Shown here one piece after another: positions 577 to 50,753 of a stretch of DNA of 64,000 nt. Under the pieces are notes generated by a model. It saw only the letters and a list, made by a program, of their open reading frames with translations, made no database searches and was not told the DNA's origin. The stretch is from a virus. Within the stretch, counting starts at the first letter, position 1. Each line of letters begins with the position of its first letter. The stretch lies in the IMG/VR virus record IMGVR_UViG_3300025789_001072, positions 32,001-96,000 of that record; one strand, given 5' to 3'. Position numbers and translations under genes: made by a program.

Positions 577-664
577 TGGCGGAGCGTAGAGGAATCGAAC
601 CTCTTCAACCCGTTAAGGTTGTACGGTTTAGCAAACCGCTGCATTACCAGCCTGCCCACGCTCC
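577..664 (-). tRNA. tRNA-Ser(GCT)
   Basis: GGAGCGT/ACGCTCC acceptor, anticodon arm GCGGT-TTGCTAA-ACCGT, long variable arm, encoded CCA. Confidence 0.95.
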
Positions 665-1359
665 ATTATATTAAATATAGCATCTTTTCCCCATACTGTC
701 AATTTATTTTTAAATTGTTTCCACTTGCAACGGTCAAGTTCTGTCTCATAACCCTTGACTTCAAGATAACCACCTAATTCTTCAACATAAAAATCAGGAG
801 TATAATGACTCAATGTTCCTTTTAAATTGATATAAGGAAATCTTTCAGTATTTCTACGCCAATTCCATCCTTGTTTATCCATATATTTTGCGGAAATTAG
901 TTCCCACGAGCCATCCAATAAAACTTCACCAGCAATAGGAGATACATATTTAATTTTTTTGCATCTTCCTGCTTTTGGCATCCATCCGTCTTCGTATCTT
1001 TTAATAATTATTTCACGGTGTCTATCTCTAAATTTTTGTTGTTTTTCTTCTGTTAAATTATTCCAAAATAATTTACCTAGATTTGCACTTCGCAACTTTT
1101 CTTTTTGAATTATTGCGCCTTGTTCACCAAATATTTCATTATATTTTTTTCCTTTAAGACTTGTGCCTTTTGAAGAACCTTTTGGGTGTCCATTTTTCCA
1201 ATAATTATTGCCTAATTCTTTTCTTAATTTTTTTATTTTAGAACGATTTAGTTCCTTCATTCCATTACAGGAACTAGTAGATTCACTACAACAATTTTTT
1301 CCATTTTTTAATTTATATTTTGCTTCTGTCCCACAACCATAATCACATAAGTTTGTCAT
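628..1359 (-). CDS. putative free-standing homing endonuclease, PD-(D/E)xK type with N-terminal Cys cluster
   Basis: CDYGCG...CC...C N-terminus, basic linker, C-terminal YTPDF...YLEVKG motif; located inside the tRNA cluster. Confidence 0.7.
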   Translation of the reverse strand: MTNLCDYGCGTEAKYKLKNGKNCCSESTSSCNGMKELNRSKIKKLRKELGNNYWKNGHPKGSSKGTSLKGKKYNEIFGEQGAIIQKEKLRSANLGKLFWNNLTEEKQQKFRDRHREIIIKRYEDGWMPKAGRCKKIKYVSPIAGEVLLDGSWELISAKYMDKQGWNWRRNTERFPYINLKGTLSHYTPDFYVEELGGYLEVKGYETELDRCKWKQFKNKLTVWGKDAIFNIMERGQAGNAAVC

Positions 1360-2967: not shown

Positions 2968-3029
2968 TTTAATTTCCTTTAGGGGTTATACACTATTTAC
3001 CATTCCCAATATGTCACCTAAATAACTAC

Positions 3030-3914
3030 ATGTGTATCATAGTGGCCAAGTATTTTGAAGGAACTGGTTGGGTCGGAGTAAAGAACCGAGATAGAAACTA
3101 TGTTCCTGATTTAAGTTTTATTAAAGTTAAAAATAATAATACCGAAACTTTATACTTTCATGATGATATTACAAAATATGTAGAAGGTATGAATGATAGT
3201 GGTATTTGTATTTTATCAGCATCGTTGATGGTGCTTGATGATGAAAAAGAAATCACTGTTCGCACTAAAACACCATCGAAAGATGGTGTAAAGATTAAGA
3301 AAGCACTTAAACTTACTGATATTAAAGCAGTTTGCATGAGTTTAATTAAACAAAAATTACCAGGCTGCACACTTATATTCAATCAAGAAGATTGCTATCT
3401 ACTTGAAGGTGCTTGGGCACCTGGTGGTTATGAAGATAAAGATTACAAATATAAGATTGAAAAGATTGAACACAATGAAACCGTTGCAAGAACTAATCAT
3501 GGTGTATGGTTAAAGTGGGCTGGCTATCAATATGGTGCGGACGATAACGAAAGCATGAGTGCTATTAGTAGTCGCAGTCGTTTGTTAATTGCGCAGCATG
3601 TTGTTGATAGCGCAGAAACACCTGCACAACTTATTGATTGGTTGACCAAAAAGTATGTTGATAATTGGCAGTTAAATGCCATGCGTTTAGCAGATGAAAA
3701 AAAGATGATGCGCACAACTGCACAACTTATGTTAGTGCCAAAAGATTTAACAATGTTTGTGCGTCCTATTCAAAGCAATATTAAGTTTAACTTTTGGAAA
3801 CTTAATGGCGCTAAGGATAATAAGATGTGGGTTGAATTGCTTACCAATCGTGTGCTACGCACTGGCGAAGATGATCCTGCTATTCCAACTAATCTTTCAC
3901 ATATTGAAGATTAA
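3030..3914 (+). CDS. N-terminal nucleophile (Ntn) hydrolase-like protein
   Basis: Cys2 after Met, KNRD, EGMNDSG and RTNH motifs, typical of C45/C59-type Ntn hydrolases. Confidence 0.65.
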   Translation: MCIIVAKYFEGTGWVGVKNRDRNYVPDLSFIKVKNNNTETLYFHDDITKYVEGMNDSGICILSASLMVLDDEKEITVRTKTPSKDGVKIKKALKLTDIKAVCMSLIKQKLPGCTLIFNQEDCYLLEGAWAPGGYEDKDYKYKIEKIEHNETVARTNHGVWLKWAGYQYGADDNESMSAISSRSRLLIAQHVVDSAETPAQLIDWLTKKYVDNWQLNAMRLADEKKMMRTTAQLMLVPKDLTMFVRPIQSNIKFNFWKLNGAKDNKMWVELLTNRVLRTGEDDPAIPTNLSHIED

Positions 3915-4162
3915 ACTGGATGATGGGCTAAACCCCAATCATTGTTTACCCAACGCAAACTAAACAGCATGGCATCTTCACTACAGTAAAATCGCCACTG
4001 ACTAGTCCAACCAAAATCGTCATTAACATATGGCCATTTTTCTACTTGAAATTTAATGTCATTTGACTCACACCATTTATGCATCTGATCAATCCACCAC
4101 TCTTTTCCATAATAGTGGGCGGCAGGTAGCGTGATATCAATTTTATAAATTTCGTCTATCAT
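3911..4162 (-). CDS. hypothetical protein
   Basis: 83-aa ORF with a DAMLFSLRW C-terminal motif, common in small phage proteins. Confidence 0.6.
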   Translation of the reverse strand: MIDEIYKIDITLPAAHYYGKEWWIDQMHKWCESNDIKFQVEKWPYVNDDFGWTSQWRFYCSEDAMLFSLRWVNNDWGLAHHPV

Positions 4163-4178
4163 GATTACTTTTTAAGTT

Positions 4179-4311
4179 TGGTGCGCTCTACCAGAATCGA
4201 ACTGGTACGCCGAAGCGAGAGATTTTACGGCGGAGATTCTGGATTTGAACCATAATGGGCGTTTACCCTTTCTCCGAAGTCTCTTGTGTCTACCTATTCC
4301 ACCAAGAGCGC
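4179..4311 (-). tRNA. tRNA-Leu(TAA) interrupted by a 50-nt insertion (4228-4277) in the anticodon loop
   Basis: Removing 4228-4277 gives a canonical 83-nt tRNA-Leu: GCGCTCT/AGAGCGC acceptor, AGAGA-CTTAAAA-TCTCT anticodon arm, variable hairpin, TTCGATT T loop, ACCA end. Confidence 0.9.
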
Positions 4312-4318
4312 ATTAGCC

Positions 4319-4606
4319 TTATTTTACACTTATACTATGTATGCTGTCAAGACGAAACGAACGCCATTCTTTAATATCGGTCACAAAAACTGCCAACGAT
4401 TTATCACTGACCTTGCGCTTTGGCATTTCAGTATCTTCGCTTTCTACGATAGGAGGCAACATCTCAGGATTAAGAGTGCAAGGCATCGTGCGTAGATCAC
4501 CATTGACTTTAGTAAAGGTTACTTCACAAATACCTTCATGCAACATACTACGCAGCATATCAATGCTTGGTTGAACATCCGCATTAAATTCAATATATGT
4601 TGGCAT
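4319..4606 (-). CDS. WYL_2/Sm-like SH3-fold protein
   Basis: VTFTKVNGDLRTMPCTL and WRSFR motifs typical of this T4-like phage family. Confidence 0.75.
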   Translation of the reverse strand: MPTYIEFNADVQPSIDMLRSMLHEGICEVTFTKVNGDLRTMPCTLNPEMLPPIVESEDTEMPKRKVSDKSLAVFVTDIKEWRSFRLDSIHSISVK

Positions 4607-4624
4607 CTATACTCTTTCAAAAAA

Positions 4625-4700
4625 TGGTGGGCAGTGAGGGACTCAAACCCCCGATCAAATTCTTATGAGGAACCGGCTTTAGTCGCTAAGCTAACCGCCC
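4625..4700 (-). tRNA. tRNA with CAT anticodon (Ile2 or elongator Met)
   Basis: GGGCGGT/ACTGCCC acceptor, anticodon arm GGTTC-CTCATAA-GAATT, ACCA end; atypical D and T loops. Confidence 0.85.
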
Positions 4701-4711
4701 ATTGTTATAAT

Positions 4712-4936
4712 TTATACTGTTTTGTTTAACCTGTCAATAAAAAGTTTCTTCAACGCTTTCTCAAAACCTTCCGAATTTCCTTCAACACGAGCCAAGAACA
4801 ATTCGTAAACAAGTGGGTCATGACTTGGTGGTGTAAAAACAAGATTGCGTGATTTCATCTCTTCAATGAGTTCATCATCATCAAAATCACTGATATCATA
4901 TTCTACTTCTACTTCTGTGTAATGTGTTCGTGCCAT
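4712..4936 (-). CDS. hypothetical protein
   Basis: 74-aa acidic ORF in the operon. Confidence 0.6.
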   Translation of the reverse strand: MARTHYTEVEVEYDISDFDDDELIEEMKSRNLVFTPPSHDPLVYELFLARVEGNSEGFEKALKKLFIDRLNKTV

Positions 4937-4938
4937 TT

Positions 4939-5382
4939 TTATTCTTCCATTTCAAAAAGGTTATTGCCAAATTCTTCTGGTTCACCAAAAAGATAATTGT
5001 ATTCTAGACTATCAGCGCATACAATATTTTGCTCAACAACATATCGCAAATCTTCACGCCCACACAATAAACGATCTTGACATAATTTAACATTGTCTGC
5101 CATAATGTCAACACCATAAATCGTAGATAGTGCAGTTTCAAATGAAATGCCGCTTTCAAGTTTGCAAATTAATACTTCACTTAAGAACTGCCCATCACCA
5201 CATGCAGGATCACAGAATATTTTAGTCGGATCACTGAATAATTCTTGTGGTAACTTGTCTAATACTTCTTGCACAAGTTCAGTAGGTGTAAACACTTCAC
5301 CTGTTGCTTTCACTCGCAACTTGTCACGTTCTACGCCACTCATATATTCACGATTACGAAGATGATTAATTATCTTTTGCAT
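4939..5382 (-). CDS. short N6-adenine DNA methyltransferase-like protein (AdoMet-binding half only)
   Basis: GEVFTP (motif X), DPACGDGQF (motif I), YGVDI, ADSL; no NPPY/F motif IV. Confidence 0.75.
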   Translation of the reverse strand: MQKIINHLRNREYMSGVERDKLRVKATGEVFTPTELVQEVLDKLPQELFSDPTKIFCDPACGDGQFLSEVLICKLESGISFETALSTIYGVDIMADNVKLCQDRLLCGREDLRYVVEQNIVCADSLEYNYLFGEPEEFGNNLFEMEE

Positions 5383-6592
5383 TGAACCCATCTACGAATT
5401 TCTTTTCATCATCAGTAAGTCCAAAGTAATTGTATACTTCATCATCGTTGTATACATGGTTCAGCGGTGGCAGCGCAAAGTTTCTGATTACTTCTTTATT
5501 ATTAAACCCACTCCACTTATTACATGCCATGATAAAGTGAAATAGTTTACTGTTAATAACGCTATGTGCACTATCAACTGTTTCACCATCTTTTACAATA
5601 TATGCCAGACACATATCAGTAAATCCCATAGTTCCGTAATCTGGCTTTGGTTGATACTTGCCACTAAGACTAATCATGACTTTATGATCATTTAGATTAG
5701 GATGCGGAACATTAGTATACCAATAACGTTCGCCCTTGGCTGGCGTATGATATACAGGATAGGTAAACATGTTATCTTGTGTTTCACTATACTTGATAAT
5801 ATTTTTACTCTGCAATTGTCCAGCAATAACTTTGCCTGTTATCTTTGCTGAGTATTTTAAATTAATGCTATATGCAAGCGCATTATTAATGGTAGGCAAA
5901 CTATCATACTGACGAAGATCAACAGTAATCTGTGTACCATCATTAAGTTCAACGAGCGTAGAGCCACCATATGGCGCATGCTGCACAATATAATAACTAA
6001 ATGTGCTTCCAACACCTGCAAAGTGTTTTCCAAGACTGTTGCTAAGATTGATATATGTTGTATTGTTCTTCGCAAGAACATCCTTGAGAAGATATCGTCC
6101 GCCGCTTAAATTCTTGGTTGGTCCTGCCCAACTTGCAGGCGTAATCATTGCAAGATATCCGCCATCGACAAGTAATTCGTTAACACTCTTGTCAACGAAT
6201 TTACTCCAAAGATTGGTGCTTAGGCTTTTACGATTGCCATTGCTATCGCTTTCGCCAAATGGTGGATTGCCGACAATTACGTCAAACTTCATAGTAACAT
6301 CCTGCTTCAAGAAATCATTATACGACATCTTATTGAAATTTCCAATAAGTTTATTCATGTTCACGGCAAGATTAACTAATGCCTTGTTATATTCAACCCC
6401 ATAAACACGGCCCTGAATGTTCTCATCATTATGACCTGCTTCACGCAACCGACGAATAATTTCAATTAAAAATTGTCCACCACCCATTACTGGATCAAGA
6501 AAAGTTGTAGTTGTGCTAGTCCACACATGTGGTGGCAAGCCGTCAAGCATTTGACTGACAAGAGCAGTGATTGGTTTAATACGAGCAAGCAT
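5366..6592 (-). CDS. Eco57I/type IIG-like N6-adenine DNA methyltransferase
   Basis: FLDPVMGGGQF, YGVE, FDVIVGNPPF and MITPASW motifs plus a C-terminal target-recognition-like region. Confidence 0.85.
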   Translation of the reverse strand: MLARIKPITALVSQMLDGLPPHVWTSTTTTFLDPVMGGGQFLIEIIRRLREAGHNDENIQGRVYGVEYNKALVNLAVNMNKLIGNFNKMSYNDFLKQDVTMKFDVIVGNPPFGESDSNGNRKSLSTNLWSKFVDKSVNELLVDGGYLAMITPASWAGPTKNLSGGRYLLKDVLAKNNTTYINLSNSLGKHFAGVGSTFSYYIVQHAPYGGSTLVELNDGTQITVDLRQYDSLPTINNALAYSINLKYSAKITGKVIAGQLQSKNIIKYSETQDNMFTYPVYHTPAKGERYWYTNVPHPNLNDHKVMISLSGKYQPKPDYGTMGFTDMCLAYIVKDGETVDSAHSVINSKLFHFIMACNKWSGFNNKEVIRNFALPPLNHVYNDDEVYNYFGLTDDEKKFVDGFNAKDN

Positions 6593-8866: not shown

Positions 8867-9304
8867 TTACTTTACTTTCTTCTGTGATTGTTTAAACATT
8901 TTATACAATCCAAGTTCACGACCAAAGGCTTCAATCTCCCAAGGACAATCCCAATAGTTCATATCTTCTGGATAATACTCACCAGCAAAACGATACATGC
9001 GCTTACGAGAGTTGAAGCCAAACTTGTCACACACATGCTGCTTGACATGCACCATCTCATGGGCGAGCGCCAACAATATAGACCGCTCGCCCATGTCAGC
9101 ATCAACCGTGATAGTAAACTCTTTACCATCATCATTGACACAATCAGCATAATTGCCTTGGTTCTTCAAAAAACCTTTTTCAAAGTCAATATGCACGTCT
9201 ACCTTCGCATGTTTCTTCATGAGATAATCGGCATAGAAACCCATCGCTGCCTTGACGGTTTTGTGGTCAATCTTGGAAGGCTTGCCAGAAATCGTGAGGA
9301 ACAT
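8867..9304 (-). CDS. zincin metallopeptidase-like protein
   Basis: LAHEMVH (HExxH) and PWEIEA motifs. Confidence 0.75.
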   Translation of the reverse strand: MFLTISGKPSKIDHKTVKAAMGFYADYLMKKHAKVDVHIDFEKGFLKNQGNYADCVNDDGKEFTITVDADMGERSILLALAHEMVHVKQHVCDKFGFNSRKRMYRFAGEYYPEDMNYWDCPWEIEAFGRELGLYKMFKQSQKKVK

Positions 9305-9330: not shown

Positions 9331-9358
9331 AATATAACATGGATTTAGGGTTTGTCAA
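9331..9358 (-). promoter_or_regulatory. sigma70-type early promoter of the peptidase-helicase-MTase operon
   Basis: TTGACA-N16-TATATT with TG extension. Confidence 0.7.
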
Positions 9359-9815
9359 GCATTATTATTTCGTCAAATCCCTCACTCAGATGAGGCATTT
9401 CAAGATGTTCAATCATGCTATCAATAACATTTTGCGGTATCTTCTTGCCCCAACGACTGTCCAATCGGCGTTGCAATTCGGCCTCATCTGGCGTAGGAAA
9501 AAATACCCCAACCTTGATCCAATCCTTGGGTAGCCGTGCCAACCGCAACTTGCGGTGCTTGGCTACCGTGTTGGTTTGATCCCATACAAGCGTCTTGTCC
9601 AAATTGATAGCCATCTGCACTTGCGAGTCACAAAACTTTTGTGCATAGCCAATAGCCTGACTAAACATTTGGTCATAGGTCTTGCCAGCCTTGGCAGCGA
9701 CAGTTTCAATATAAGCATCGCTAGACGCAATGATTGCGTCTTCAAAACCTTGCTTTGTAATCCACGTTGACTTGCCGGAACCTGGCACACCAATTAACAT
9801 ATAACACTTTGTCAT
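9345..9815 (-). CDS. P-loop kinase (AAA_33, polynucleotide 5'-kinase-like)
   Basis: GVPGSGKST, SSD, WDQTN and RxxxR lid motifs. Confidence 0.85.
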   Translation of the reverse strand: MTKCYMLIGVPGSGKSTWITKQGFEDAIIASSDAYIETVAAKAGKTYDQMFSQAIGYAQKFCDSQVQMAINLDKTLVWDQTNTVAKHRKLRLARLPKDWIKVGVFFPTPDEAELQRRLDSRWGKKIPQNVIDSMIEHLEMPHLSEGFDEIIMLDKP

Positions 9816-10040: not shown

Positions 10041-10490
10041 TCAAAAATTACCTTCGGCAACCTGCAACACACGAACGCCACATGCACGGATGGCATCAAC
10101 AACCTGATTACGGTCATCAAACCACAGCCAAGGCTCGCCAAAGTCGCTACGGATTTGGTCAAACAATTCTACTTTGACAATGCTATCCTTGCGATAGTCC
10201 CTTTCCGCTCGCATGTAAAGCCGCTTGTATGGAACGGTATGCGTTGCCAACCACTTCTCGGTTACCGCACGAGTTTCCTCGCCACGACCGCTGCAAAAGA
10301 TGATAATGTCGCCCCGTGAATGAAACACATCCAACAGCAATGAGATGTCTGCATGAACAGTGTCATTTGCCATACCAGCGTTCCAAGCAGCCCAGTTCTT
10401 TGGCTTGCTTGCAACCCAATGCTTGCGGTGTTCAGTGTTGGCAATCGTGCCATCAATGTCACATACGATAATCTTGTTCACTTTAACCAT
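10041..10490 (-). CDS. HAD-family phosphatase resembling the T4 PseT 3'-phosphatase domain
   Basis: DIDGT, SGR, D-x-R-K-D-x-x-x-K and FDDR motifs. Confidence 0.88.
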   Translation of the reverse strand: MVKVNKIIVCDIDGTIANTEHRKHWVASKPKNWAAWNAGMANDTVHADISLLLDVFHSRGDIIIFCSGRGEETRAVTEKWLATHTVPYKRLYMRAERDYRKDSIVKVELFDQIRSDFGEPWLWFDDRNQVVDAIRACGVRVLQVAEGNF

Positions 10491-29867: not shown

Positions 29868-30893
29868 CTAAAGCCAGGTATCAGACCTTAAGAGAGTCCA
29901 ATCAACAACTTGCTTAATACGTTCGGTAAGTTCAATCTTAGGTTCCCAACCAAGGCTCTTCATAAATTCACCACTTAAGGAATAACGAAGGTCATGACCA
30001 GGACGGCTAGAATGGAAATCAACCATTTCATAATGTAGTTGTTTGTCTTGCGCATTGGCAATAATCTTGGCAAGTTCAAGGTTATCAATTTCTTGCTTGC
30101 CTACGATATTAAACTTTGGACACTTTGCTCCACCAAACTCTGGTGGCATTGTAAAGTCCTTGAGATCAAGAATAAACATCAAGGCTTCGGCAACATCCTT
30201 AGCATGAATATAGTGACGTGAACCAGGTACTGTGCGAGTTTTGTCACTATGAACCGTGATTGTTTCGCCATCACGAGCCTTGCGAATACACATAGGAATA
30301 AACTTCTCTGGATGCTGACGCTCACCAAATACGTTCATGGTATGCGTTACATAGACGGGCAGACCATAGGTATTTTCATATGCAACCGCAAGTTCTTCAC
30401 CACCTGCTTTGGCAGCACTATACGGATTGCCACTGTTATAGCGATCATACTCACCGTAATTTACACCAACTGGTGCAGGACCAAATACTTCATCAGTTGA
30501 GAAATACACAAAGCGTTCTAAATTATCACACTTACGAGCAAACTCAAGAATATTGCAAGTTCCAACCACATTATCCATAACGAATTCCATAGGATAATCG
30601 ATACTACGGTCAACATGACTGCCAGCGGCCAAATGTAAAATAATGTCAACAGGACCAATGCGAGTTTTGGTAAGAGGATTGATTTCGGCTTTAAGATCAT
30701 GGAAGATTACCTTTACACGTGATCGTGTTTGTGGGCTATGGTCTTGCATCATGTCGTTTAAGCGGTTAAGATTGCCACTAAAATCCAAGCGGTCAAGACT
30801 GATGATATTCCAGTTGGTAGTTTTAAGGATATGATCGATAACATGGGTAGCAATAAAACCTGCACCACCAGTAACTAATACGTTCTTTGACAA
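29868..30893 (-). CDS. rfbB: dTDP-glucose 4,6-dehydratase-like NAD-dependent epimerase/dehydratase
   Basis: TGGAGFI, SHVDRSI, STDEVFG, YSAAK and RPGHDLRY motifs. Confidence 0.88.
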   Translation of the reverse strand: MSKNVLVTGGAGFIATHVIDHILKTTNWNIISLDRLDFSGNLNRLNDMMQDHSPQTRSRVKVIFHDLKAEINPLTKTRIGPVDIILHLAAGSHVDRSIDYPMEFVMDNVVGTCNILEFARKCDNLERFVYFSTDEVFGPAPVGVNYGEYDRYNSGNPYSAAKAGGEELAVAYENTYGLPVYVTHTMNVFGERQHPEKFIPMCIRKARDGETITVHSDKTRTVPGSRHYIHAKDVAEALMFILDLKDFTMPPEFGGAKCPKFNIVGKQEIDNLELAKIIANAQDKQLHYEMVDFHSSRPGHDLRYSLSGEFMKSLGWEPKIELTERIKQVVDWTLLRSDTWL

Positions 30894-30927
30894 TTTATTC
30901 TCCGATTATTGATATTATTATATATGG

Positions 30928-31152
30928 TTACGATACTTTCGTCAATAAATTATTGATGATATCGTTACTAATCTTTTTAGAATGCCCATTTCTATCAACA
31001 AGCACCAACCCAATGCCTGTTGGACTTGCATCATCAGGATAAAACTCTACAGTAGCTTCACTGTCCTTACCACTATCACGCAGATAACGTTTTACCATCG
31101 TCATCATACGCATGTTAATAAACATGTTTTCACAATCAATGACATTATCCAT
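30928..31152 (-). CDS. hypothetical protein
   Basis: 74-aa ORF with AGGTG RBS. Confidence 0.6.
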   Translation of the reverse strand: MDNVIDCENMFINMRMMTMVKRYLRDSGKDSEATVEFYPDDASPTGIGLVLVDRNGHSKKISNDIINNLLTKVS

Positions 31153-31166
31153 GGTTCACCTATCTT

Positions 31167-31337
31167 TCAATTAGTAATGGCAGTAATGCCACAAGCCTTC
31201 ATAAACATACCATAATGGAACCGTGGGTTACTCTGGCGGCAAACCTCTGCAATAGACTGTGCAATCTTTATGCGATTTTCAAGGCTGTCAATACAGGATA
31301 TAGCGGCGGCTAGAACTTCGAAATGTTTTTTACTCAT
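31167..31337 (-). CDS. small hypothetical protein (56 aa, below the ORF-track cutoff)
   Basis: MSKKHFEVLA...NPRFHYGMFMKACG behind a sigma70 promoter. Confidence 0.6.
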   Translation of the reverse strand: MSKKHFEVLAAAISCIDSLENRIKIAQSIAEVCRQSNPRFHYGMFMKACGITAITN

Positions 31338-31386
31338 AGGATACCCTTTCTGTTGTTTGAACCAAGTAATATTGATTCGTATTATT

Positions 31387-31414
31387 AATATACCATATGA
31401 TTAAAATTTGTCAA
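31387..31414 (-). promoter_or_regulatory. sigma70-type early promoter
   Basis: TTGACA-N16-TATATT. Confidence 0.7.
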
Positions 31415-31415
31415 T

Positions 31416-31446
31416 AAAAAAAAGACCGCTGCGAAGCGGTCTTTTT
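31416..31446. terminator. intrinsic terminator
   Basis: AAAAAAAAGACCGCT-GCGA-AGCGGTCTTTTT (UUCG-containing loop on the minus strand). Confidence 0.9.
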
Positions 31447-31493
31447 AACGGACATCTTTAGTTTTGGCTCGTGCCGACGCCGCAGGTTCTTAA

Positions 31494-31907
31494 TTACTTT
31501 GCCTTCTTTGCCTTTGGAGCAGCCGCCTTCTTAGCACGGGGCTTCTTAACTGGTGCTGCTTCTGCCGCTACTTCTGGTATTACGACTGCACTTGGTGAAT
31601 CAACAGTTACAACAACTGGTGCTACTTCAACACGATTTGGGTTTTGATCACTCATTGCCCATTCAGCGTCACTTATGTTTTCTGGCTTAGTTGTTGCCTT
31701 TGGTGTTTCGGTGGCAGTTTCAGCAACATGTAATACTTCGTCCATCTTTGCCGCTACTGCCTGCTCTGCTTCTGCCAAATTTGCCTTGGCTTCTGCTTCT
31801 AACTTATCCAGAGGATCAACCTCTGGTGTCTTGTCTTTATGATTTAGCAACTTGTAAATCACTGCAATAAGAACAGCAAGACCAAGCAATAAAATAATAG
31901 TGTTCAT
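31494..31907 (-). CDS. membrane-anchored protein with Lys/Ala-rich tail
   Basis: N-terminal TM; C-terminal KKPRAKKAAAPKAKKAK; AGGAG RBS. Confidence 0.7.
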   Translation of the reverse strand: MNTIILLLGLAVLIAVIYKLLNHKDKTPEVDPLDKLEAEAKANLAEAEQAVAAKMDEVLHVAETATETPKATTKPENISDAEWAMSDQNPNRVEVAPVVVTVDSPSAVVIPEVAAEAAPVKKPRAKKAAAPKAKKAK

Positions 31908-31969: not shown

Positions 31970-32278
31970 TTATTTGTACGATGGGGAATAAAATTTAAAT
32001 GCCTCTTTCCAAAAAGTGCTGTAAAGATCATTTGAAACCTGTTCTTGCATCTTCTTGAAATGCTTGCCAGCACTAACTTCTTCAACTGACTTTGCCATTT
32101 CACTGGAAATTACGCCCATTGCGCTTGCTGCTGCCTTAACAGCATCCTTTGTATAAGCAGATTGTGCATCAACAAATGCGTTCATGCTCTTTGCAATAGT
32201 TTCGTTCTGCACAAAAGTCTTTACCATAGTCTTTTTTGCGTTCTGTACGGTATCAATAAATTCATCGGTATCAAACAT
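31970..32278 (-). CDS. phasin-like amphipathic helical protein
   Basis: start refined to MFDTDEFIDTVQ (AAGGAG RBS); Ala-rich amphipathic helices; TGC-rich upstream box. Confidence 0.55.
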   Translation of the reverse strand: MFDTDEFIDTVQNAKKTMVKTFVQNETIAKSMNAFVDAQSAYTKDAVKAAASAMGVISSEMAKSVEEVSAGKHFKKMQEQVSNDLYSTFWKEAFKFYSPSYK

Positions 32279-49590: not shown

Positions 49591-49902
49591 AAAAAGTGCA
49601 ACTTTTCTGTTTCGAGGTAAGTTGCCAACCCAAGAAATTAAGCTACTAGAGCCATTTCAATTAATGCATTATCGTTAGCATTTATTACGTTTACTAACAT
49701 CTACTCAAAACCTTTACTACACCTGTCGATCCTAATTGCCGCCCATCAAAGATACACCGTCATGGACTCAAACCATAATAGCATTAGAGTTAACTAATCT
49801 ATGTATCATACCCCACGTCTGGGCAGTGTATCTATGGTGGACGGCGAGAGAATTGCACTCTCGTCCAGCATGTTTATTCTGTTTTGCCTCAACAATATTA
49901 GT
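49591..49902 (-). ncRNA. ssrA: circularly permuted (two-piece) tmRNA
   Basis: acceptor piece first (T arm GAGAG-TGCAATT-CTCTC, GCCGTCC-A-CCA ending at 49835), 90-nt spacer, coding piece starting GGGCGGC at 49744 (G3.U70 pair), tag frame 49679-49638 ANDNALIEMALVA*; outer ends approximate. Confidence 0.9.
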
Positions 49903-49906
49903 ATGT

Positions 49907-49937
49907 TATTTATAGCATAGGGAAAGGGTTATGTCAA
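49907..49937 (-). promoter_or_regulatory. composite sigma70 / T4-late-like promoter for the tmRNA
   Basis: TTGACA-N17-TATAAA, where the -10 box is a perfect TATAAATA. Confidence 0.75.
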
Positions 49938-49940
49938 GGG

Positions 49941-50753
49941 TTAAATTATTTTATCCCAACTATCCAGATCAGATAACATTTCGTGAAATATAATACCAGG
50001 ATGTTTACAATCTCTTGCAAATGATTTTTTCTCTTCCATTGTAGAAAATGCTATTTTTAATTTTTCTTCATTTACTGAAAACAAATTAATATTATTTTCA
50101 TATGCAATAAATTTTATAGCATTCCAATTTCTATGCCAAAATATCTGTTGTTCATCATCGCCTGAAAAATAATTTTGATATGCATATTCATAGAAAAACA
50201 TATTTTCTTTACTAAGATTATTTCTTTGAGAAAAATCATCAGTTAATACCCAATTACCAATGCCATCACTTTGTTGTTTTTTTCTAATAAATTCTCTACG
50301 ATTTTTAAATAGTCCCATTATATAAACATTCTTTTGTTTAATAACTGGTAACCATGCCGCCATTAAACGATACATTGTTTCAATCCCAGCACCAGATTGG
50401 CTAAGATTGTAAAAACACCCACCAATTTTTCTGTTAATTTTATATCCGCATGTATCTTCTATATTAATACCATTTCCTGCAAGTATACTGCATCCTAAAA
50501 AAACATTCCCTTCTTCTGGGTTTTCCAAATTAAAATTATCTGGTGTTCTAAATCCATAATTGTTATAGGAATATATTATCTCAGCATCTATCCAATTATT
50601 TTTTTCTAATAAAATTTTATTTTCTTTTAAATTTTTTTTATATGTCTCAATAGAATCTCTATTTGCATACTTTAAAATTTTATTTGATTCATTGTAACTA
50701 TATGAAAAATTATTGAAAAATTCTTTATCAGACATTTTTTGTTTGGTCGTCAA
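49941..50753 (-). CDS. SGNH-like hypothetical protein (AT-rich)
   Basis: YNNYGFR, FLGCS, NLSQSG and ARDCKHPG motifs. Confidence 0.6.
   Translation of the reverse strand: MTTKQKMSDKEFFNNFSYSYNESNKILKYANRDSIETYKKNLKENKILLEKNNWIDAEIIYSYNNYGFRTPDNFNLENPEEGNVFLGCSILAGNGINIEDTCGYKINRKIGGCFYNLSQSGAGIETMYRLMAAWLPVIKQKNVYIMGLFKNRREFIRKKQQSDGIGNWVLTDDFSQRNNLSKENMFFYEYAYQNYFSGDDEQQIFWHRNWNAIKFIAYENNINLFSVNEEKLKIAFSTMEEKKSFARDCKHPGIIFHEMLSDLDSWDKII

Follow-up and report, generated by a model that had tools for sequence, protein, structure and literature searches.

We analysed a 64,000-nucleotide (nt) stretch of DNA (the window), positions 32,001 to 96,000 of the IMG/VR virus record IMGVR_UViG_3300025789_001072, in which a tRNA-Leu(UAA) gene is split within its anticodon loop by an insert of 50 nt. 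Because the record comprises 130,704 bp and is rated 37% complete by CheckV, it derives from a jumbo phage of approximately 350 kb. The interrupted gene lies on the minus strand behind a promoter-like block. Its parts are as follows (window coordinates).

4321..4350, minus strand: sigma-70-type promoter, TTGACA-18-TAAAAT, with 11 of 12 consensus positions matched (a consensus match only)
4182..4311, minus strand: interrupted tRNA-Leu(UAA) gene, 130 nt (Rfam RF00005 and sequence)
4278..4311, minus strand: exon 1, tRNA positions 1-33, plus 4277 if the junction lies between U34 and A35 (sequence)
4228..4277, minus strand: the 50-nt insert in register 1; register 2 is 4227-4276 (sequence and fold)
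4182..4227, minus strand: exon 2, from U34 or A35 through the discriminator A (sequence)
4179-4181, minus strand: CCA encoded after the tRNA (sequence)

The exons make up a complete tRNA-Leu with a 7-bp acceptor stem, a Leu-type D arm, a 5-bp anticodon stem, a long variable arm and a T arm, ending with the discriminator A and the encoded CCA. The 7-nt anticodon loop, CT/TAAAA, is split by exactly 50 nt. Because a T stands at each junction, the registers 4228-4277 and 4227-4276 are equivalent, as an earlier model-made reading of the letters (the sequence-only reading) had recognized. The promoter block stops 10 nt before the 5' end of the tRNA, and the same block precedes the tRNA in relatives. 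The Rfam tRNA model RF00005 (gathering score 29) matched 4182-4311 on the minus strand with 40.9 bits over model positions 1-71, leaving a 53-nt unaligned block in the anticodon loop. ARAGORN in its default mode did not report the interrupted gene. When introns were allowed, it found a 50-nt intron but placed it at 38/39, the eukaryal position, and called the gene Arg(tcg). This call was discarded because the body is of the Leu type and the loop of the intron-less allele reads CTTAAAA. No second tRNA-Leu was found within the 130.7-kb record, and UUA is the top Leu codon of the phage (807/2740, 29.5%, in 104 long open reading frames, ORFs).

The insert is real: it interrupts a tRNA-Leu(UAA) that is canonical in every other respect, and its boundaries are precise. 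Contigs from all four independent DNA runs compared (X3, X4, X5 and X8) cross it with 0 differences and 8 further contigs contain it, which rules out the assembly chimera that the sequence-only reading had named as a refuting outcome. It occurs in 9 contigs in total, in 5 distinct sequence variants. In the syntenic sister phage L014/L139, where the upstream gene and the promoter are the same, the tRNA-Leu has no insert; it is base-for-base identical to the joined exons and, in L014, scores 57.1 bits with the Rfam tRNA model. The description of the locus as a canonical tRNA-Leu(UAA) with 50 nt placed in its anticodon loop is borne out by the Rfam match and by this allele. The 27-mer across the joined-exon junction is present in at least 120 IMG/VR contigs, and in 3 runs contigs with an intron-less tRNA-Leu pass directly from 4227 into exon-1 sequence. 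One X3 DNA contig (depth 4.45, 7 differences) links 4162 to 4308, bypassing the tRNA-Leu gene; it probably stems from a strain that has a different tRNA allele there.

The interrupted gene is present in 4 other IMG/VR contigs. Degenerate patterns of the insert returned the same 4 contigs only in IMG/VR and nothing outside tRNA-Leu, and GTDB genomes gave 0 matches with both patterns. An exact 21-mer of the insert recovered 3 contigs and two gapped exon patterns recovered 4 and 6 stretches; two of the latter 6 (L128 and L129) are ordinary tRNA-Leu genes matched via the acceptor strand. A metagenome scan with a gapped exon pattern gave 9 stretches, comprising 7 with the intron (3 duplicates of IMG/VR contigs and the new L130, L132, L133 and L136) and 2 chance matches (L134 and L137). 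When 850 kb of related phage DNA were searched with R1, a covariance model built on the insert, 7 copies came up, and the next matches had an E value of at least 3. A dispersed mobile element or repeat was rejected, since all 7 copies lie inside tRNA-Leu. Intron-aware ARAGORN made 122 intron calls in 127 phage loci with 998 ordinary tRNAs. Among these calls, 117 overlap ordinary tRNAs and are artefacts made from halves of neighbouring tRNAs or from long variable arms; the other 5 are the insert in tRNA-Leu (4 calls) and L113 (1 call). Window positions 3000-6000 had no match in a blastn search of 50,697 phage records.

When the insert was folded alone, the minimum-free-energy (MFE) structure and the centroid structure were the same, a three-way junction with the following elements (MFE and centroid fold).

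4271-4276 with 4231-4236, minus strand: closing, acceptor-like stem, 6 bp
4257-4268, minus strand: small hairpin GGGU/GCCC, 4 bp with a 4-nt loop
4240-4252, minus strand: T-like arm, 3-bp stem with a 7-nt loop of T-loop sequence

This is the fold that had been described from the letters, and it held up apart from the T stem, which is weaker than claimed. The folding energy is -13.4 kcal/mol (z = -1.95), a value equalled by 8 of 200 shuffled sequences. In the fold of the whole precursor every tRNA arm is retained, with the insert as a domain of its own on the anticodon stem. In register 2 the insert can be parsed as the top half of a tRNA (7+15+17+7+4 = 50), that is, a 7-nt acceptor strand, a 15-nt connector hairpin, a 5+7+5 T arm, a second 7-nt acceptor strand and a 4-nt tail. 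The insert is joined to both exons at the outer end of its closing stem, where the 5' end is flush and the 3' end overhangs by 4 nt, as in the ends of a tRNA. The base at -1, before the stem of the insert, is U. Four positions of the T-like loop are kept in every variant, namely U54, C56, a purine at 57 and A58.

The insert is 92-100% identical overall, with 96-100% among eight homologous loci and 92% to L130, the most distant carrier. The 400-nt upstream flank that we used to gauge divergence, mostly the gene of a WYL_2 protein, is 72-88% identical among the eight homologous carriers, with one pair at 96%. Across the 5 variants, 6 of the 50 insert columns vary (1 in the loop of the small hairpin, 2 in linker and 3 in the T-like loop), and all 6 fall among the 24 unpaired positions (p ~0.008, a hypergeometric estimate). 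The exons vary in 2 of 80 columns, one in the D loop of exon 1 (G to A in L136) and one in the T loop of exon 2 (in L130). Both exon variants also occur in intron-less phage tRNA-Leu genes. The two halves of the anticodon stem and the seven loop bases are invariant in the 5 variants. In L130 the upstream 400 nt are unrelated (~41%), the insert is 92% and the exons are 99% identical, and the order phosphatase, kinase, metallopeptidase-like ORF, tRNA-Met, ORF, tRNA-Leu is retained.

The insert is neither a group I nor a bulge-helix-bulge intron. The smallest known group I introns are about 200 nt long. Because 50 nt cannot hold a group I core, group I self-splicing is impossible for the insert, as the sequence-only reading had argued; there is no P3-P9 core, and an Rfam scan of 4100-4400 at E<=10 returned tRNA only, plus two chance snoRNA matches. 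In register 1 the 5' exon ends with U and the insert with G (…CU/U…CCG/U…), in register 2 the insert ends with U, and no internal guide sequence could be assigned. The known small self-cleaving ribozymes (hammerhead, twister, pistol, hatchet, HDV-like and others) likewise gave no Rfam match at E<=10. A bulge-helix-bulge, which the earlier reading had not seen either, cannot be drawn, since the two junctions share one end, the outer one, of the 6-bp closing helix. There are no two opposed 3-nt bulges around a 4-bp helix, and the MFE structure has a single 5-nt bulge on the 3' side only. The splicing endonuclease family PF01974 was found in none of five phage records (G000, G001, G004, G006 and G007; G004 and G007 are complete and the source record is, as stated, 37% complete), with control matches in 4 archaea.

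Conserved "enigmatic" tRNA introns have been reported for the Lak megaphages, among them one intron that may itself code for a tRNA (Devoto et al. 2019; PMC6784885, preprint 10.1101/356790). They are present in some Lak genomes and absent from others (PMC6784885), and one sentence in a 2026 survey of jumbo phages is to the same effect (PMC13037316). The proposal of a new intron type made from the letters was therefore overstated. Our literature search brought up no mechanism for such phage tRNA introns and no demonstration that any of them is removed and its exons rejoined, and the passages of PMC6784885 and PMC13037316 that treat them give none. By the text description of the Lak introns, on which the comparison is based, both systems have inserts in tRNA genes of very large phages, which are nearly identical wherever the same intron is present, and which some relatives have and others lack. 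In both, the genes are missed by tRNA finders in bacterial mode, and one Lak intron is itself predicted to be a tRNA. In contrast to the Lak phages described, which are gut phages of Prevotella, our phage belongs to another lineage from freshwater, a different tRNA is interrupted, and the insert, a top half of only 50 nt, is not called as a tRNA by any finder. It may well belong to a barely described class, the tRNA-shaped mini-introns of large phages.

Group I introns of bacterial and phage tRNAs have been reviewed (PMC3984707). The insert shares its host tRNA with the group I intron in the tRNA-Leu(UAA) of cyanobacteria and plastids, in which the 5' exon also ends with U and the intron is also present or absent among relatives; unlike group I tRNA introns, which have about 200 nt or more, it measures 50 nt and lacks a P3-P9 core. 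The bulge-helix-bulge tRNA introns of archaea and eukaryotes, which the splicing endonuclease cuts and RtcB or Trl1 joins, are also short introns of the anticodon loop, their exons fold as the mature tRNA with the intron as its own domain, and their removal depends on proteins, as would be the case here. However, the insert has no 3-4-3 motif and sits at 33/34 or 34/35, not 37/38, and neither PF01974 (in the five records) nor the ligase RtcB (in the source record) was found. One of its two registers, with the junction between U34 and A35, corresponds to what we take to be the site of the classic tRNA-Leu(UAA) group I intron. In MALAT1 mascRNA and the t-elements of plant mitochondria, a tRNA-shaped module sets the exact cuts of RNase P and RNase Z. 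Unlike the case considered here, the flanks of those modules are not rejoined, and the systems are eukaryotic or organellar.

The gene is part of a conserved cluster with the order tRNA-Met, small ORF, tRNA-Leu ... tRNA-Val, tRNA-Ser, tRNA-Arg, Rnl1. The neighbours relevant to the following are listed below.

Genome 30386-31567, just left of the window: Rnl1, T4-type ligase (PF09511, 89.3 bits)
4319..4606, minus strand: WYL_2/Sm-like small protein between tRNA-Met and tRNA-Leu (Pfam PF10902, E 4.3e-10; PHROG 1086)
4625..4700, minus strand: tRNA-Met(CAT), the upstream neighbour (ARAGORN and Rfam; same order in relatives)
9345..9815, minus strand: Pnk-type P-loop kinase, candidate 5'-OH healing enzyme (Pfam AAA_33, E 4.7e-16)
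10041..10490, minus strand: PNKP-type HAD phosphatase, candidate 3'-end healing enzyme (Pfam HAD_PNKP, E 8.4e-32)

The sequence-only reading had suggested looking for an RtcB or Rnl ligase; RtcB is not in the source record, whereas Rnl1 is, together with the Pnk enzymes. Rnl1 is full-length and aligned to residues 52-360 of the 375 of T4 Rnl1 (E 3.6e-27), a range that presumably includes the tRNA-specific C-terminal domain. Its gene lies 1.7 kb past the last tRNA of the cluster, and those of the kinase and phosphatase lie 5-6 kb away on the other side as two separate ORFs, assigned by sequence family only. The linkage of tRNA, Rnl1 and Pnk genes is also found in G001, G003 and L130, and in L130 the kinase homologue adjoins the HAD phosphatase and tRNA-Met/Leu. 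The HAD phosphatase also occurs in G001 and G004 but was not found in G006 and G007. Rnl1 as a marker of intron carriers was rejected, as intron-less relatives have it. Because Rnl1 and Pnk are equally present in those relatives, their presence should be considered permissive rather than diagnostic. The arrangement resembles the repair system of T4 directed against PrrC damage, in that Rnl1, a kinase and an HAD phosphatase are encoded beside phage tRNA genes and the break to be sealed would lie at or next to the wobble base. In contrast to T4, which mends a single cut inflicted by the host, a 50-nt segment would here leave the phage's own transcript, and the kinase and the phosphatase are separate genes.

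Several further ORFs were found around these genes. An endonuclease-like ORF (window 628-1359, minus strand; PHROG 15137, E 5.5e-13) lies between tRNA-Val and tRNA-Ser. In relatives the distance between these two tRNAs is ~80 nt or ~815 nt, and the ORF is present or absent in the manner of a free-standing homing endonuclease, independently of the tRNA-Leu intron. A small SprT-like/metallopeptidase-like ORF stands directly beside the Pnk-type kinase (window 8867-9304, minus strand; L130 2393-2824, plus strand). It was considered as a nuclease and rejected, its nearest atlas clusters being SprT-like/metallopeptidase-like (DUF6782 in the L130 homologue). Between Rnl1 and tRNA-Arg there is a 152-aa ORF (L004 2304-2762, minus strand; genome 31304-31762), which by eye looks like an AIG2/gamma-glutamyl-cyclotransferase-like protein.

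At 8 related loci where the position between Met and Leu is in view, all 8 tRNAs have the anticodon UAA. Three contain the intron, one is the same tRNA without it, and four have other tRNA bodies, two of them short-armed. Because the anticodon is UAA at all 8, the locus appears to serve to supply a decoder of UUA/UUG. No other tRNA-Leu was seen in the carriers' fragments. In L140/L141 (at 2811), L142 (at 4133) and L146 (at 4340), different UAA tRNA bodies stand behind the same promoter, and two UAA bodies in sister phages have a short variable arm, unlike canonical tRNA-Leu. An arms race with a tRNA-targeting nuclease of the host could be behind this hypervariability of the tRNA(UAA) locus.

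tRNA genes with inserts were also found in two other large phages. G006, a jumbo phage (318 kb) that encodes Rnl1, has a tRNA with a 47-nt insert (L186 101-219, plus strand; G006:C1:136812-136930) in or beside the anticodon, the tRNA being Asn or Thr depending on the register. The insert can be parsed as 7+12+17+7+4; its T arm has all 5 bp, and its tail reads ACCG. No intron-less allele of this tRNA was present among the loci compared, and no HAD_PNKP match was found in the G006 record, which is 85% complete. As judged from its sequence, the G006 insert may lend some support to the generality of the tRNA-top-half design. G007 (360 kb) has three tRNA-framed genes (Rfam 47-59 bits; L184 101-215, L185 99-224 and 283-409, all minus strand) with 42-60 extra bases replacing or inside the anticodon arm. 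These inserts lack a T-loop and are of another kind than the insert in tRNA-Leu, so such inserts need not share one mechanism.

Considering these results, we tentatively favour the reading that the insert is a true, tRNA-shaped intron of tRNA-Leu(UAA), cut out by RNase P and a 3' endonuclease and resealed by Rnl1, although we rate it a little below an even chance. We infer the removal of the insert as well as the enzymes that would cut and join. A cut-and-join route is favoured because the exons must be rejoined to match the role of the other alleles and the insert cannot splice alone. The gene would be transcribed from its own promoter, and the exons would fold as a cloverleaf with the insert as a mimic of an acceptor/T arm. 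RNase P would cleave where the acceptor-like stem begins on its 5' side, so that exon 1 would end in U34 with a 3'-OH. A second endonucleolytic cut would fall four bases past the stem, at a position like that of a tRNA 3' end, so that exon 2 would start with A35. The tRNA body would keep the two halves together, and the T4-type Rnl1 of the phage would seal the nick in the anticodon loop, with the split Pnk kinase and phosphatase on hand if the ends needed healing. T4 Rnl1 is, as we understand it, specialised for breaks in the anticodon loop, the same kind of break as at the insert junction.

Several observations weigh against this reading. The insert resembles a tRNA imperfectly. Only 3 pairs of its T stem are secure, bases 7 and 66 as well as 50 and 64 do not match, and the would-be pair 49-65, with A-G and A-A mismatches next to it, is broken in L136 and L130 without compensation. 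L130 has a G at the position of tRNA U55. The tail reads C-CGU instead of N-CCA; the 3' end that the sequence-only reading gave as CCG and called CCA-like is CCG(T), not CCA. The junction strands of 2, 4 and 3 nt do not oblige the acceptor-like stem to stack on the T-like arm, and the insert by itself is not recognized as a tRNA by Rfam or by ARAGORN. All 13 predicted pairs are intact and invariant in the 5 variants, and no compensatory change supports the fold, since divergence is too low for covariation to be scored. As for the cuts, no bacterial endonuclease is known for certain to cleave a substrate of this kind precisely behind position 76. The usual cleavage site of RNase Z, behind the discriminator, would leave 3 extra bases. 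The closest Rnl1 (88% identity) belongs to the intron-less L139, and in the complete relative G004, which has Rnl1 and the phosphatase, none of the tRNA matches listed exceeds 100 nt. The upstream flank of our phage is also nearest to L139 (87%, versus 73-81% for other carriers), and intron status therefore does not track the flank tree. Part of the identity of the insert may come from recent lateral spread or tRNA-cassette exchange, not from selection alone. All 24 sequencing runs listed with the phage are DNA metagenomes (23 labelled freshwater), and none is RNA.

Other explanations of the same data have to be considered. The 130-nt RNA might stay intact as a tRNA look-alike that does not decode but ties up a tRNA-binding protein; it might, for instance, be the decoy of a host anticodon nuclease directed at tRNA-Leu(UAA). 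The unusual variability of the UAA locus in sister phages, with its four other bodies, would fit an arms race, the conservation spans the whole insert beyond its ends, and the tRNA-framed RNAs of G007 hold inserts that are not tRNA-like. However, a decoy or shield accounts less well for the relatives, which at the same locus have ordinary decoding tRNAs with this anticodon; the sister allele is the same tRNA uninterrupted. The intact anticodon-stem halves and loop bases, the lack of another tRNA-Leu in the carriers' fragments and the preference for UUA also speak for decoding, and we regard the look-alike as unlikely. We consider it more improbable still that the insert is spliced by a heal-and-seal route, in which the Pnk phosphatase and kinase heal the ends before Rnl1 seals them. 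This is the chemistry by which T4 repairs PrrC damage and yeast splices tRNA with Sen/Trl1; Trl1 leaves a junction 2'-phosphate, unlike T4-type repair. All three enzymes are linked to the tRNA cluster in our phage, G001 and L130, and the register 1 junction lies between U33 and U34, which we take to be the site that PrrC cuts and T4 Rnl1 reseals. Against this, the search for an endonuclease that could make the cuts gave no candidate: the five records lack PF01974, and the nuclease-like ORF at 628-1359 comes and goes independently of the intron. Moreover, G006 combines a similar insert and Rnl1 with no HAD_PNKP match in its 85% complete record, and the Pnk and Rnl1 genes also occur in intron-less relatives.

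There is a slight chance that the insertion simply disables the gene, as a tRNA pseudogene or as selfish DNA tolerated since the host tRNA-Leu suffices. Presence and absence in close relatives and the 6-nt terminal inverted repeats formed by the closing stem would suit a tiny mobile element, but no other copy was found in the 850 kb of related DNA, in IMG/VR outside tRNA-Leu or in GTDB genomes. Exons and insert are nearly invariant while the flanks diverge, the insert persists in the distant L130 beside an unrelated upstream flank, and the promoter is kept. The chance is slighter still that the insert represents a tiny RNA of a new type that cleaves or splices itself. Conservation of nearly all 50 nt, a compact three-way junction with purine-rich junction strands, and the U at the end of the 5' exon and the final G of the insert in register 1, as in group I introns, would be in line with a ribozyme. 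Yet no Rfam ribozyme matched at E<=10, the insert is too small for a group I core, one small motif would need to make two cuts and a ligation, and some variable sites are loop bases on which such a core might depend.

Returning to excision by tRNA-processing enzymes and sealing by Rnl1, this route may represent a third mechanistic class of tRNA introns, a possibility that we hold with clearly more doubt than not. In such a class, RNase P and a 3'-end endonuclease would excise the element at +1 and position 76, Rnl1 would reseal the tRNA, T4-type RNA repair enzymes would at the same time serve as a splicing ligase, and having such a ligase would allow selfish tRNA-shaped elements to colonise the tRNA genes of phages. 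It would be a parallel in the bacterial world to, and possibly a forerunner of, Trl1 splicing. The ligase and kinase modules of Trl1 are relatives of T4 Rnl1 and Pnk (PMC6379707, PMC10946426). Overall, the interpretation put forward in the sequence-only reading is partly supported.

Elsewhere in the window, a permuted tmRNA of the alphaproteobacterial type was found at 49595-49941 on the minus strand (Rfam alpha_tmRNA, 89.9 bits), with the tag peptide ANDNALIEMALVA predicted by ARAGORN. This phage-encoded alpha-type tmRNA hints at an alphaproteobacterial host.

To our knowledge, bacteria and phages are thought to splice tRNAs only by means of self-splicing group I ribozymes. A conserved, precisely bounded 50-nt intron that is neither a ribozyme nor of the bulge-helix-bulge type needs a protein-dependent cut-and-join route in a bacterial cell. 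The present case is special in that the insert sits, in one register, at the classic group I site of tRNA-Leu(UAA), a sister allele with identical exons lacks the intron, and candidate enzymes flank the tRNA cluster. The locus is therefore a clean test case, with one intron, an isogenic intron-less allele and candidate enzymes nearby. Because tRNA finders in bacterial mode miss such genes, as default ARAGORN missed this tRNA-Leu, the tRNA repertoires of phages are under-counted. If the route through RNase P, a 3' nuclease and Rnl1 is true, phage Rnl1 and Pnk would have a second, constitutive role, and it would explain the "enigmatic" introns of the Lak phages and provide an evolutionary bridge to eukaryal Trl1 splicing.

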